The notes beneath the pieces were generated by a model that had not been told where the DNA came from, did no database searches, and was given only the letters and a program-made list of their open reading frames with translations. Below, one piece after another: positions 2,794 to 60,119 of a stretch of 64,000 nt of DNA (position 1 is the stretch's first letter; the number at the start of each line of letters is the position of its first letter). The stretch is from Octopus vulgaris (lineage: Eukaryota). Made by a program: the position numbers and the translations under genes. The stretch is from contig OX597837.1 of NCBI GenBank assembly GCA_951406725.2, forward strand, positions 6,758,001 through 6,822,000. The letters run 5' to 3'.

Positions 2794-3435
2794 GAGTGGC
2801 TGTGTGGTAAGTAGTGTAGCTTGCTTAACGGCCACATGGTTGCGGGTTCAGCAAAGGTCCTACGCTGGTGTAGGACGCCTTTCCTTCGGGTTAAACATTG
2901 CATTTAGCAATATATTCATTTTAACTCTCACCTGTATGATAATCATTGTCAATTTTTAATCGTAAAACTGCTACACCCCTTTATGTTTTTTCCCTCCTTG
3001 TCCGATCCCTCTATACATTGCCTTAAGGCAAATATTATGAAATAAAGTAGCTTGCTTAACAAGCACATGGATCCTGGTTCAGTCCCAATGCGTGTCAATA
3101 TGGTCAATTGTTTTCTACTATAGCTTCGGGCCGATCAAAGCCTTGTGAGAGGATTTGGCAGACGGAAACTGAAAGAAGCCCGTCGTATAAATATATATAT
3201 GTATGTGTGTGTATGTGTCTGTGTATGTTTGTGTGTCTGTATTTGCTCCAGCAACATAGTTTGACAACCAATGCTGGTGTATTTACGTCCTTTAATTTGG
3301 TGGTTCAACAAAAGAGACCGATAGAATTAGTACTAGGCGTACAAAGAATAAGTCCTGGGGTCGATTTGCTCGACCAGAGGCGGTGCTCCGGCATGGCCGC
3401 GGTCAAATGACTGAAACAAATAAAACAATAAAAGA
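2794..3435 (+). mobile_element. SINE family A copy interrupted by an insertion in its tRNA-like head
   Basis: Head gagtggctgtgtggtaagtag at 2794; resumes as gtagcttgcttaac at 3047; tail ggcggtgctccggcatggccgcggtcaaatgactgaaac at about 3380-3418. Confidence 0.85.
2852..3046 (+). mobile_element. 5'-truncated 3' end of a non-LTR retroelement related to 57181-59410, inserted in a SINE A head
   Basis: Ends tgccttaaggcaaatattatgaaataaa|gtagc versus tgcctttatggcaaatgttttgaaataaa|gtagc at 59382-59415; about 36 bp of target sequence is imperfectly duplicated on both sides. Confidence 0.7.
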
Positions 3436-3479
<44 letters not shown>

Positions 3480-14137: not shown

Positions 14138-15712
14138 ATGCCGTCAAACACAAGAAATTCATTTATAAAAGCTGAAACTCACCGCCTCAGCAATTTCTTA
14201 GACACACTTCTTAAACCTTTCCTAAAACACATCAAAAGCTACGTAAGAGACGATATAGATATGCTCAACCACCTCCCTAAAACAGTCAATGAGAAAACCC
14301 TTCTAGTATCATTCGACGTAGTTAATCTTTATTCTAACATCCCTCACAACCTAGGAATAGAAGCAATCACCTTCTGGCTGAATAACTACCCCTTTGAACT
14401 CCCAACTCGCATAAACAAAGACCTTATAATAGAAGGACTTAGATTCATTTTAGAGAACAATTATTTTATTTTTGACAATGATTTCTACAGGCAAAGATCG
14501 GGAACAGCGATGGGCACGCGTACTGCACCATCTTTTGCCAACCTAGTGATGGGATACCTCGAGAAAATACTATACCGGATGACACTCGAGAAATATGGAA
14601 ACACCTTCGCCACCTATATCCATAACAACTGGAAAAGATACCTCGATGACTGTTTCATCATCTGGGACAAAGGCATAGAGAAACTTGAGGAATTTAAAAT
14701 TCTATTAAATGGAATAAATGACAATATACAATTCACGATGGACCACAACGAAAAAGAATTACCATTTTTAGACATCCTCATTAAGAAAACCGGCAACAAA
14801 ATAGAGACAGATATCTACTATAAACCGACAGACTCTAAACAGTACCTACCCTTTGATTCATGCCACCCACGACACACTAGAATGAATATCCCTTTTTGTT
14901 TAGCTAGAAGGATTTGCACCATAATATCAGACACAAACACCCGACACACACGTCTCCAGGAACTTAGAACCACACTCACAAATAGAAACTATCCACAGCC
15001 CCTAATAGACAGTGCAATCCAACGGGTACTTAAATTAAGTATAGAAGACCTGAGACAAACAAAACCAAAAAAGAAAGAACAATTAAAAACCCTTCCCTAC
15101 ATCTCTACACACAACCCACTCAACAATGAGGCCTTCAACACCATACTACAAAGCACAGCCCTACTAAAGGGAGGCCCAAAGATGAACCGGATCCTCGAAA
15201 CACACACCATCATTAAAAGTAAACGGCAACCAAAATCCTTGAAAAGGATTCTAACCCAAGCTACACTGCACTCAACATCAACCACAAAACCAGCAGTTAG
15301 AAAATGTGGAAGGCCCAACTGCGGAATCTGTGTCATCTTGAAAGAAGGATCAGAATTTATACTGGAACAAGGCCACCAGTTCACCATTAGAACAAACTTC
15401 ACCTGCGCATCAGAAAACTTAATTTACGTCATAACATGCGCAGGCTGCAATAGGCAGTATATAGGCCATACAAAAAATAGCTTACGTAACAGGATGGCGG
15501 TGCATAAATCACAAATTAGAAAGCCTGATTACCGCAAAATACCGGTCAGCGGACACATAGATAGATGTGCTGGAAATGTAAATCCGAAATTTACAACTAA
15601 CCCGCTCTATAAATTCAGTGACAACGCAACCTTCACACAACGCCAAAATAAAGAACTATATTTCATTAAAAAATTTAGACCAAGTTTAAACACCCTGGGC
15701 CAGGAATACTAA
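14138..15712 (+). CDS. Penelope-like reverse transcriptase + GIY-YIG endonuclease (N-terminally truncated; first ~10 codons come from the inverted pLTR)
   Basis: Motifs VSFDV, GTAMG, YLDD, LPFLD, YYKPT; linker CGRPNCGIC (Neptune-type Cys motif); LIYVITC..C..QYIG; no internal stops over 524 aa. Confidence 0.92.
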   Translation: MPSNTRNSFIKAETHRLSNFLDTLLKPFLKHIKSYVRDDIDMLNHLPKTVNEKTLLVSFDVVNLYSNIPHNLGIEAITFWLNNYPFELPTRINKDLIIEGLRFILENNYFIFDNDFYRQRSGTAMGTRTAPSFANLVMGYLEKILYRMTLEKYGNTFATYIHNNWKRYLDDCFIIWDKGIEKLEEFKILLNGINDNIQFTMDHNEKELPFLDILIKKTGNKIETDIYYKPTDSKQYLPFDSCHPRHTRMNIPFCLARRICTIISDTNTRHTRLQELRTTLTNRNYPQPLIDSAIQRVLKLSIEDLRQTKPKKKEQLKTLPYISTHNPLNNEAFNTILQSTALLKGGPKMNRILETHTIIKSKRQPKSLKRILTQATLHSTSTTKPAVRKCGRPNCGICVILKEGSEFILEQGHQFTIRTNFTCASENLIYVITCAGCNRQYIGHTKNSLRNRMAVHKSQIRKPDYRKIPVSGHIDRCAGNVNPKFTTNPLYKFSDNATFTQRQNKELYFIKKFRPSLNTLGQEY

Positions 15713-56765: not shown

Positions 56766-57180
56766 TAAGAATATATGAATGCGAAAGAGATACTTTAATA
56801 ACTGTAAACCTACTTTTGGACCGCCCTGTACATACATACATATGTGTATGTATGCATGTATGTATGTATATATGTATGTATATATGTATGTGTGCATCTG
56901 TTTTCATATTAAACTGGAAAGAAAGTTTTGCTGCATTTCTGACATAATTGCTTTGAGGATGCCTTTTCCAAAACTTACAGTGAAATAAACTAAAATTTTA
57001 CTTTTAAATGGATTTTTTCTTCCTTCTTTGCGGATTACTTTTATATTTTAGTGATTAAATTCGCATCGATTTTAACCTTTTAAAGTGAGTTGAAATCAAA
57101 CCCGTATGAAACGTTGCATATTCTATGAATTCTAAAAAAGGTTTTACAGCAGGCGCAGGAGTGGCTGTGTGGTAAGTAGC

Positions 57181-59410
57181 ATGCTAACAGTTGCTTCTGC
57201 GCATGTGCGAGTCAGTGTTGTTTGGCACTGAAGCGGTGAAGACGTGCTATTGAAGCCGTCTTGAATTGAAAACTTTGGAAGCCCCATGTAAGGTAAGATT
57301 CTGTTTTTGGGTCCAGTGGGAGTTTTTGTTGAGAATTGTTTTTTACAGGCAGGAAGTCCTACTGGATTCAGAATTCTGATTCTGCCGACATGTGGCAAAT
57401 ATATTTTTCTCGCTGAGAAAATTTTTGGGGGCGTATCCGTCTTCGATAAATTGAGTAAATATTTTTCTCACGTAATTGTGAGAATTGTATTGTGCTGTGA
57501 AGAACTTTTATGAATTGTGAAAACTACTACTTCGCAAGAAAATTATAAAAATAAGCCACTATTGGATTACCTTTCGGACCCATTTTTGTGGAGGTTGTGT
57601 TGCAGTTGCGGCGTTCCAGGTTCAACCCAGGCCGGGAGTACCGCAAGGCCAGAATATTTTTGCTGTGTTTTTTCTGTTTATTAACTTTCTTTTGAACTTC
57701 ATTTAACCCCCCTTTTGTTTTTTTCTTTATTGCGACTTTCCGTTGATTTCTTCCCCTTTGTTGTGCTTTCTCCTTTTTGTTTTTTCAAAAATCTATCAAA
57801 TTTTATTTGAACTTTTGAACTTTTTTCTTCCTGCTTTTTGAGTTTAATTTGAATATATTTTAAAAAAAACATGGCAATGAAAAATAACAAAATTTTGGAG
57901 TGGGAAATCATACCACCTAAAAAGTGGTTAAAAGACCGTGAAGATAGGACGGTGGTGTTGAGAACCTACTCCAAGGCACTCGACACCATCGCCTTATTCG
58001 AAAAGACGGCAATTGAGGAGGAGTTGGAAGAGTATTTGCCAACAATTAAATTCATTTCCAGGGGTGTCAAATATGCAACGGTGTGGTTGCTATTTGACAC
58101 CCCTGAAGAGGCTTGCAAATTTGCTAGCAAACCCCTGGTGGGTAGGGAAATCTTATTCCTGCCCACGTACAAAAAAAAGAAATTGATGAAAGCTTGGATA
58201 TGCGGATTGCCACCCGACATAGAACCCGAGTGGATAGAGGAGACTATCCGCCGGGGTCTGGGTGACAGCGAAACTAAGCTCCTCAATGTAAAAGTTCTTC
58301 CTGCGGCTGCTTGGGTTGGGTCAAAAGCAATTTTGACCCTGTGGACCCAATCAGCCAATCTGGTTCTTCCAGATTTTTTGAAAATGGCCGGGTGCAGGTA
58401 CCCGGTGATGCTTGAGGGTGCCCCCCCTAAGTGTCATCGATGCTTGGAGTCCGGCCACATAAAGAAGAACTGTCCTCGGGAACAAAATAGGATCCCGGAA
58501 CAGTTAAGTAAAACCCCTCTAGAAGAGGGAACGATAACGGCCGAGAAAGCAGAGGACTCCTCAAACAGAGGCCGAAAGAGGAAGGTGAGCAACAATGGGT
58601 GCTCACCAAAGGATAATAGGGATGAGGAGAGGAAGGCGAATCTTCCAGCCACGGAGGAGACGCACCCTCCCTCAGTTGAAAAGGGAAAAAAAGAAAAAGA
58701 GGAAGAAAAACGGGACATTACCGGCTGCCAGTGTAGCACCGGAATGTCCCGGAACTACGTCGGTTGGGGTTGTGCCACCGACAAGAGAAGGAATACCGTT
58801 GGCGGGAACTGTGCCGCCAACGAAAGAACTGAACGTATTGGTCCTCTTCTATAGAGGAGGAGAAATTGAAAAAGTGATGGAAGAGCACTACAAGGGAGCA
58901 CCTTTAGCCTTCACACAGGACCCCGAATGGCCTCCGCAGGTAGCTGTGGAGGCCGTGACGTTCGACGTGACGCTTGGGCTAAAGGAGCTCAATGAAGATT
59001 ATAACTTGGTCCCGGGCGACGCGAACTCGGAACTTGATTACGTTCTGAGGGAGGCGTGGTTGATGGTGGAGGGCGCGGGCACAAGCTATTTCGAGGACGA
59101 TATGTATTATTAGTAATGGACTTAAGTCCAAAAATTGGAAAATTGTAAGAGGATTAATACCTCGTTTTGTATTAATAATGGACTGCTAAGTCCAAAAATT
59201 GGAAAAATTGTAAGAGGTTTAATACCTCGTTTTGTGTTTATCTTTAAAAAGAACAATGTTTTAGAGAAGCAAAAGTCGGCGGGCGCTTTTTGTCTTCTCC
59301 CATCCTTATCATCTTTCTTTCATTATCATTCACCTCATTAATGTCCTCGTCCAGCCCGCAAAGCTAACTTAATCTGTGTACTGCCTTTATGGCAAATGTT
59401 TTGAAATAAA
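57181..59410 (+). mobile_element. ORF1-only (HAL1-like) non-autonomous Tx1/L1-clade retroelement inserted in a SINE head
   Basis: TSD AAGTAGC; Inr/DPE-like TCAGT..AGACGTG at 57212-57246; ORF1 with zinc knuckle; no ORF2; ends at AATAAA. Confidence 0.85.
57871..59113 (+). CDS. ORF1 gag-like protein with CCHC knuckle; C-terminal part probably continues in another frame (58595-59113) after a frameshift in an A-rich run
   Basis: CHRCLESGHIKKNC; EILFLPTYKK..ICGLPPDI..WI..LPD..PVMLEGAPPKC aligns with EIIMVPYYKN..IRNVPPDM..WI..LPD..YVMAEGKKPRC of ORF1 at 32461-34212. Confidence 0.8.
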
Positions 59411-60119
59411 GTAGCTTGTTTACCAACCACATGGTTCTGGGTTCAGTCCCACTGCGTGGCACCTTGGGCAAGTGTCTTCTACTATAGCCCCGGGCCGACC
59501 AAAGCCTTGTGAGTGGACTTGGTAGACGGAAACTGAAAGAAGCCCGTCGTATATATGTATATATATGTATGTATATATGTATGTTTATATGTCTGTGTTT
59601 GTCCCCCACCCCTAGCATTGCTTGACAACCGATGCTGGTGTGTTTATGTCCCCGTCACCTAGCGTTTCGGCAAAAGAGACCGATAGAATAAGTACTGGGC
59701 TTACAAAGAATAAGTCCCGGGGTCGAGATGCTCGATTAAAGGCGGTGCTCCAGCATAGCCGCAGTCAAATGACTGAAACAAGTAAAAGAGTAAAAGAGTA
59801 ATGGAAACTGCAAGAAATATTCGTTCCCTCTAGAGAAATTAAAATGTTGAGTGTCCGGACATGTCAACGAAATTTTGGCCAGAGTCGCACGAGAATTATC
59901 TATTTCTGTCGCAGATTTCTGACGATCTGGTCGACCAAATTCTATCAAGCATATTTATGTTTTAAGCTTAGTATTTACTCTATAGGTCTCTTTTCCCGAA
60001 CCGCTAAGTTACGGGAACGTTAACACACCGATACCGTTTGTCAAGCGGTACTGGGGACAGACACAGATACAATGATGCACATAGATAAATACACCACATA
60101 CGACGCAAACACACACACA

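Follow-up and report, generated by a model that had tools for sequence, protein, structure and literature searches.

An ORF1-only retroelement lineage of Octopus vulgaris inserted at one nucleotide of a tRNA-like SINE, probably mobilised by a Tx1-like LINE

A stretch of 64,000 nt from Octopus vulgaris (OX597837.1, 6,758,001 to 6,822,000; the window, to which all positions below refer) contains a 2.2-kb retroelement with a single type of open reading frame (ORF), ORF1, which interrupts a short interspersed element (SINE). The element and both parts of the SINE read on the plus strand. The 5′ part of the SINE head, with an A-box-like sequence at 57162–57172, lies upstream (57152–57173), and the SINE body continues downstream from 59409. 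This right-hand part (59409–59800) begins with a target repeat (59409–59423), followed by a B-box-like sequence (59440–59450), a microsatellite and a tail. The motif AAGTAGC is present on both sides of the element (57174–57180 and 59409–59415), as the original prediction, made from the sequence of the window, had proposed. The full repeat, however, is about 15 bp long rather than 7 (57174–57188 versus 59409–59423, with three mismatches in the window copy; about 15–16 bp across copies). The distal half of its left copy matches the element lineage and not the target, and in full-length copies the left repeat is partly donor-derived.

The 5′ untranslated region (UTR) of the element (57189–57870) is one of three interchangeable types in a young family of such elements. 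It carries a GCGCATG-type palindrome (57199–57209), which we take to be NRF1-like, an initiator (Inr)-like TCAGT at 57212 and a downstream promoter element (DPE)-like AGACG at 57240. ORF1 (57871–59113) has a weak match to a CCHC zinc knuckle (58429–58476), the sole Pfam match in the element, which falls under the curated cut-off (E 0.0055). The one zinc-knuckle ORF1 of the original prediction needs a correction: a frameshift in an A-run near 58690 divides the gene into frames of 327 aa and 172 aa. A named relative of this ORF1 is a protein of Octopus sinensis with 65% identity. The element has no reverse transcriptase (RT) or endonuclease, as had been stated; comparison with the ORF2 of the autonomous helper described below gave no match (best E 0.69). 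The 3′ UTR opens with a tandem duplication of about 65 bp (59108–59241) and contains a motif complementary to the target top strand (59361–59370), with a one-base bulge in the family of the window copy. It also includes a terminal hairpin with a 4-bp stem and a 5-nt loop (59382–59394), common to the autonomous helper, and ends at AATAAA (59405–59410) with no poly(A). The final two A's belong to the target as well, and here the earlier description holds in full.

A second filled site is located at 2794–3440 (+) and consists of a SINE head, a diverged duplication of about 40 bp, a 3′ UTR remnant of about 190 bp (about 2858–3046) and the SINE body. The insertion ending at 3046 does join the same SINE nucleotide as the 2.2-kb element, as claimed, but it is a 5′-truncated 3′ UTR from an older ORF2-bearing (helper-type) family and not a member of the ORF1-only family.

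The octopus genome was searched with the 3′ 300 bp of the element, and 40 of 2311 candidates were scored. This gave 30 loci, the window copy included (individual retrieved loci bear L numbers). All 30 nearest copies terminate at the identical nucleotide of the SINE head, none with poly(A), and the SINE head is found upstream in 20/20 longer loci. Substitutions relative to the window copy amount to 0.85–3.3% in 33 copies, and the exact young-family junction occurs in at least 193 copies genome-wide. A looser 3′ terminal pattern has 924 matches in the genome versus 5 for the reversed control, and is therefore not due to chance. Of these related 3′ ends, 732 run directly into G[A/T]AGC, and among the retrieved loci the SINE target follows 121 of 125 distinct termini. 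Kojima's criterion for a target-specific non-LTR element is that more than 20% of flanks belong to one repeat (PMC4494074); here 30/30, 121/125 and 732/924 termini lie at one SINE position. The flanks are thus not heterogeneous, and the proposal of a sequence-specific, SINE-targeting family is borne out.

Only a small part of the available sites is occupied: 68,385 exact empty sites stand against 609 exact filled ones, i.e., about 0.9% are filled. Among the 100 empty sites that head the list, which all come from the initial 3 Mb of C1, 32 are TAAC, 41 TTAC, 7 T-TTCC and 20 AAGAAG variants. The young family occupies 46 TAAC versus 24 TTAC targets, and AAGAAG occurs at none of its 100 listed junctions versus 20 of those empty sites.

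An autonomous partner with an apurinic-type endonuclease (APE), an RT and the same 3′ end, which the original prediction had called for, was found by sampling the terminal-pattern loci. This helper, L107, is a 5.45-kb long interspersed element (LINE) at the same SINE site with the same 3′ hairpin. It encodes an ORF1 of 467 aa and an ORF2 of 1133 aa with Exo_endo_phos (PF03372, E 5e-12), RVT_1 (PF00078, E 1e-27) and zf-RVT (PF13966, E 1e-8) domains, whose catalytic motifs were located. The order, with the APE at the N-terminus, the RT next and a zinc motif at the C-terminus, is as expected for Tx1. Of the endonuclease matches listed (150), about 70 have an identity of 97% or more, and the open frame reaches at least 1133 aa in 14. 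The closest solved relative of the helper is human L1 ORF2 (E 8e-67), ahead of R2 (E 6e-20), a result that assigns the helper to the L1 group and no further; "Tx1-like" here describes architecture and targeting and not a comparison with named Tx1 sequences.

Older ORF2 families, with endonucleases 73–89% identical, use the same site (L191, L193, L194, L203, L205, L207 and L210, from a set of 20 older loci, several of them with no readable end). In a tree of 30 rows (midpoint root for drawing only), nine C-terminal ORF2 rows of SINE-targeting elements group in a single clade (support 100/99) beside lineages with other flanks. Helper and element are alike only in the last ~40 nt. This shared terminus includes a TGCC-loop-GGCA hairpin whose loop varies widely in sequence and which is broken in some single copies; in L281 and L286 the outer pair is compensatory, giving CGCC/GGCG. 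In the profile scan the ORF1 knuckle falls just below the cut-off. The feature similarity of ORF1 to CCHC and ZCCHC3-type RNA-binding clusters is 0.90–0.93, and the single-sequence fold (pLDDT 38) was unusable. Assembled contigs, whose RNA origin is only guessed, cover 30, 30, 30 and 28 of 30 bins of the helper, with neither transcription nor transcript ends implied; for the element, coverage is 21–30 of 30 bins in contigs of runs filed under four organism codes, in a search swamped by the SINE.

We conclude that the window element represents a long-lived ORF1-only lineage that inserts at one nucleotide of a SINE head and likely depends for its mobility, in trans, on a Tx1-like LINE using the same site; the probability of this reading is put at roughly 0.85.

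The 5′ junctions differ between full-length and truncated copies. In full-length copies with T at the diagnostic position of the right repeat, the left repeat has the lineage A in 13/14 cases, and left and right 15-mers are identical in only 1 of 17 informative copies. Another subfamily has a one-base-deleted left repeat in 9/12 copies and such a right repeat in 0/12. In L035 a true target duplication is present, and behind it comes an additional target copy of the donor type. Among 11 truncated copies examined, L152, L122 and L058 have the same private variants across the insert, and two have duplications of 6–7 bp. By analogy with R2, for which homology-based 5′ joining is known, we infer that the left target copy holds the start of the RNA and that joining proceeds through homology.

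The sequence RGACG begins exactly 29 nt from the first base of the repeat in 10 copies with six spacer types, which are identical to one another at only 1–9 of 12 positions. It stands at 27 and 30 nt in two further copies, and a further six older full-length copies lack it within this range. The usual DPE spacing is +28 to +32. In young lineages RGACG is found at 58–59 (36/39 and 10/10), at 67–69 (the subfamily of the window copy) or at 20–21. These spacings suggest that the initiator may come from the target in many lineages, and that a unit of about 30 nt resembling a decayed target (10–11 of 16 matches) may have been gained by the young ones. The Inr/DPE-like motif reported earlier is present at 57212 and 57240, but it lies about 25–55 nt inside the 5′ end and hence cannot by itself account for full-length copies. 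The young ORF1-only family (L031–L050, L126–L145) has three unrelated 5′ ends of about 350 bp on one body. One of the three types starts like the 5′ end of an older helper (L193, L194), and L039 has two types in tandem.

At the 3′ side, the complementary motif varies together with the target. In 137 junctions, an A-type motif accompanies an AAGTAG target in 120 and a T-type motif an AAGAAG target in five; one junction is discordant and 11 have no motif. The five T-type cases are four ends of the ORF1-only type and the ORF2-bearing L163. The motif stands at 45–49 nt in some and at about 80 nt in other, otherwise unrelated UTRs, and in five representatives its pairing with the target was beaten by only 2–6 of 300 shuffles.

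These features may be combined in the following scheme. A Pol II transcript would start at the left target copy or close to it, so that the target sequence stands at the RNA's 5′ end. The element would make its own ORF1 protein and recruit the helper ORF2 via the shared 3′ hairpin and terminus. By the biology of the L1 group, the helper APE would nick the bottom strand of the SINE and prime reverse transcription at the fixed 3′ junction with no poly(A) tract. The 3′ UTR motif, which covaries with the target, may pair with it and help to choose the SINE variant, its partner being either the displaced DNA strand or the RNA's own copy of the target. Full-length cDNA would then join via the donor target copy, giving the lineage-typed left repeats observed at the junctions, and truncated cDNA would give the ordinary duplications of 7–16 bp also observed there. 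Each insertion separates the A and B boxes of the SINE and regenerates the target, which permits the nested and tandem insertions observed.

A further reading assigns three roles to the SINE target: a landing site, the initiator half of a split promoter and the partner of a guide-like motif in the 3′ UTR. The other half of the promoter would be the DPE-like motif of the element, 29 nt downstream, and the base of the guide-like motif would follow the turnover of SINE subfamilies. This reading is tentative and its chances are about one in three. If true, it would mean partly RNA-guided and partly reprogrammable target choice in an element of the L1 group, and the co-evolution of a SINE, a LINE and an old ORF1-only parasite at one nucleotide.

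A number of observations weigh against the scheme or parts of it. The pairing of the window copy is matched by 64 of 300 shuffles (30 for L194 and 26 for L282). As many as 78 of the 120 concordant motif rows come from one young family, and the T-type motif is confined to two lineages. Overwriting of the downstream flank by donor RNA was not detected (8/48 versus 3/29, p 0.52), and the truncated copies L057 and L165 differ from the right repeat at the diagnostic base (2/11). On the side of specificity, 192 of the 924 termini have no exact 5-nt flank. In an older family only 16 of 25 loci continue into the SINE; five intact ends are followed by unrelated DNA, and in the other four the end is missing or belongs to another family. 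The specificity of this family looks looser or more decayed. The ORF1s of element and helper are only 28% identical, and which helper family is used is therefore judged from the common end, target and age. Cleavage, trans-mobilisation and the transcript ends are deduced from sequence. Finally, in the last 130 nt of a (TATC)n-associated sister family no complementary motif was found.

The sister family also speaks for the strongest alternative, namely targeting by protein only. Here, the helper endonuclease would read the SINE as in Tx1L, and the motif and the 5′ target copy would be by-products or serve only in RNA folding and 3′ processing. In the available text of Kojima 2015 (PMC4494074), target choice is mainly determined by the endonuclease, and the young octopus family is strictly specific despite its bulged motif. 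Against this stand the switch of the motif base with the target variant, in ORF1-only and ORF2-bearing lineages alike, and the location of the motif at differing distances in otherwise unrelated UTRs. Protein-only targeting departs from the favoured scheme solely in the pairing step, and we regard it as a serious possibility, with odds somewhat short of even.

The ORF1-only lineage can be considered in its own right. An intact ORF1 frame of 412–414 aa with the usual C-terminus is present in 12 of the 30 close copies, and 18 lack the full frame. Between ORF1-only copies the synonymous divergence (dS) reaches about 1.7 or more, and the ratio of nonsynonymous to synonymous divergence (dN/dS) is 0.13–0.31 in 13 pairs against L090 (L139 in this set is affected by a frameshift). 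By these sequence measures, the lineage is old and under purifying selection. The element might instead have arisen recently from the autonomous LINE by internal deletion, its ORF1 being passive. It does share its target and terminus with the LINE, a single chimera (L064) joins an ORF1 of the ORF1-only type to an old helper 3′ end, and the frame is missing from the 18 copies just mentioned. However, the low identity to the helper ORF1, the dS between ORF1-only subfamilies and the dN/dS values all speak against recent deletion. Of 20 older endonuclease loci, 15 have a detectable ORF1, and in no case is it of the ORF1-only type. This origin is very improbable.

The target SINE has a tRNA-like head, A and B boxes and a high copy number, as the count of exact empty sites indicates. 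The head aligns best to tRNA-Lys(TTT) (z about 5–6; among 27 distinct tRNAs sampled from about six isotypes), and ARAGORN and Rfam did not call it as a tRNA. SINE families named in octopus include OK, OR1 and OR2. Comparison of the SINE body with the helper gave no match, so that the SINE is not evidently the helper's passenger; the SINE tail downstream of the element is unrelated to the LINE 3′ end. A tRNA gene as the real target, with the SINE as a look-alike bystander, would agree with the tRNA-like head and with the use of tRNA genes by other target-specific elements (PMC4640811). Nevertheless, the target 15-mer was found within 4 mismatches in 0/27 of the sampled tRNA sequences (about six isotypes only), the flanks run on into the SINE body, and the target variants follow the SINE subfamilies, which leaves this explanation highly unlikely. 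Upstream of the match in L065 there is another SINE, with a tail like the pyrimidine-rich 3′ end of the helper, which suggests that it may be Tx1-mobilised.

The insertions arose separately. Fourteen copies 5′-truncated at 43–1650 nt still have the SINE head upstream (L056, L057, L058, L062, L066, L068, L113, L117, L122, L146, L152, L154, L160 and L165), which points to separate insertions and not to one amplified composite. Private target variants are duplicated on either side of the insert in L033, L095, L122 and L152, and several SINE subfamilies serve as the target. Copies are also nested: L110, L120 and L159 run at their 3′ side into the start of another element instead of the SINE body, and the upstream neighbour in L126, L131 and L156 is the 3′ end of another element. 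Amplification of a SINE-plus-element composite as a unit (by SINE hitchhiking, transduction or duplication), which the original prediction had named as a refuting outcome, would fit the very uniform 5′ junctions of full-length copies and the young family's preference for one SINE variant, but it is contradicted by all these copies and by the nine ORF2 rows of differing ages at the same site, and is barely credible. In L125, L115 and L099 a short element end lies between oppositely oriented SINE heads in an inverted or hairpin-like arrangement.

Among known systems, the available text on the Tx1L group gives the nearest parallels. Tx1L in Tx1D of Xenopus and the crocodilian Tx1-Mar, Tx1-8_Crp, Tx1-4_AMi and Tx1-9_AMi target other transposons (PMC4494074). 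The octopus elements resemble them in the fixed place of an APE-RT element within another transposon, in tandem insertions around a regenerated target duplication and in a non-autonomous passenger at the same target, theirs being SINEU-3 (PMC4494074). As far as that text goes, the targets of the group are DNA transposons or LTR elements, whereas the octopus target is a tRNA-like SINE split between its A and B boxes; moreover, the octopus passenger codes for a protein, belongs to an ORF1-only lineage and has no poly(A), and the specificity of the young family is near complete.

HAL1 (half-L1) elements possess a poly(A) tail. The octopus element has none, is sequence-specific and has a Tx1-like partner, in contrast to HAL1 as described in the available text. 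Both are non-autonomous, carry ORF1 only and rely on an L1-group partner (PMC5753468), and the octopus ORF1 is likewise homologous to that of its partner (28%) and kept by selection (dN/dS 0.13–0.31). The element works like HAL1 but is not HAL1 proper, being non-mammalian and having no poly(A) in 30/30 copies. HeT-A and the ORF1-only telomeric Jockey elements provide another case of persisting, diversifying ORF1-only lineages beside site-restricted ORF2 donors, but these belong to the Jockey clade and occupy chromosome ends, with no endonuclease-defined internal target in the text available (PMC13534243). R2 is co-transcribed with its rRNA target (PMC4494074). As proposed here for the octopus elements, target sequence carried on its RNA leads to uniform 5′ junctions and can make insertion more specific. 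R2 differs in having a restriction-like endonuclease and a Pol I-transcribed host gene, where the octopus elements have an APE and a dispersed SINE.

Mutsu and Dewa are sequence-specific Tx1 families. In the descriptions available, they and Keno, Kibi and Koshi use host RNA genes or microsatellites, unlike the mobile SINE targeted in octopus. Keno, Kibi and Koshi are listed as sequence-specific Tx1 families (PMC4494074), and the (TATC)n-associated sister family of the window is similar to Kibi and Koshi. The 2026 octopus repeat annotation reports 13 active L1-Tx1 families, and its main text does not contain the words "target" or "nested" (PMC13282606). A SINE target is absent from the available text of PMC4640811, PMC5035012, PMC8869645, PMC9004415 and PMC3531059. 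No SINE-targeting Tx1 was found in the literature searched, which did not extend to Repbase, Dfam, subscription papers and supplements (e.g., the repeat library of PMC13282606), and these may hold the families. The octopus system is real and well supported. Transposon-targeting Tx1 elements and half-LINEs are known; the new feature is a SINE as target, with testable hints of RNA-assisted recognition.

The sister element of the window (30460–34480, minus strand) is Tx1-like, with an ORF1 of 583 aa and a related 3′ hairpin. Its ORF2 is internally deleted, and the C-terminal part is 61% identical to the helper. (TATC)n follows 25/25 copies of this family, and the window copy is flanked by TATC repeats on both sides; this family, which targets a microsatellite, stands beside the SINE-targeting clade. 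Another related ORF2 lineage, the third (L195, L200 and L196), has endonucleases 64–66% identical; L195 and L200 have one common 3′ flank, from which L196 departs after six bases. ORF2 relatives in Patella caerulea (cluster P0040, 29% identity) comprise 11 members with neighbouring locus tags, which suggests a tandem array at a specific target. The window also contains a 524-aa ORF (14138–15712, plus strand) with RT and GIY-YIG matches, i.e., a Penelope-like element, and ORFs (35691–39937, minus strand) that resemble, by eye only, a Helitron replication protein and a PIF1-type helicase.

The arrangement reverses the usual relation of LINE and SINE: the LINE exploits the SINE, splitting its promoter boxes with each insertion. 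The 68,385 empty sites, about 1% of sites filled, the intact helpers and several dated lineages constitute a natural series that bears on how APE retrotransposons gain and change specificity, given sister lineages whose targets are (TATC)n and a different sequence. The covarying motif bears on the contribution of RNA to targeting and is relevant to tools for site-specific gene insertion. For the octopus genome itself, repeat annotation must handle split SINEs as insertions.

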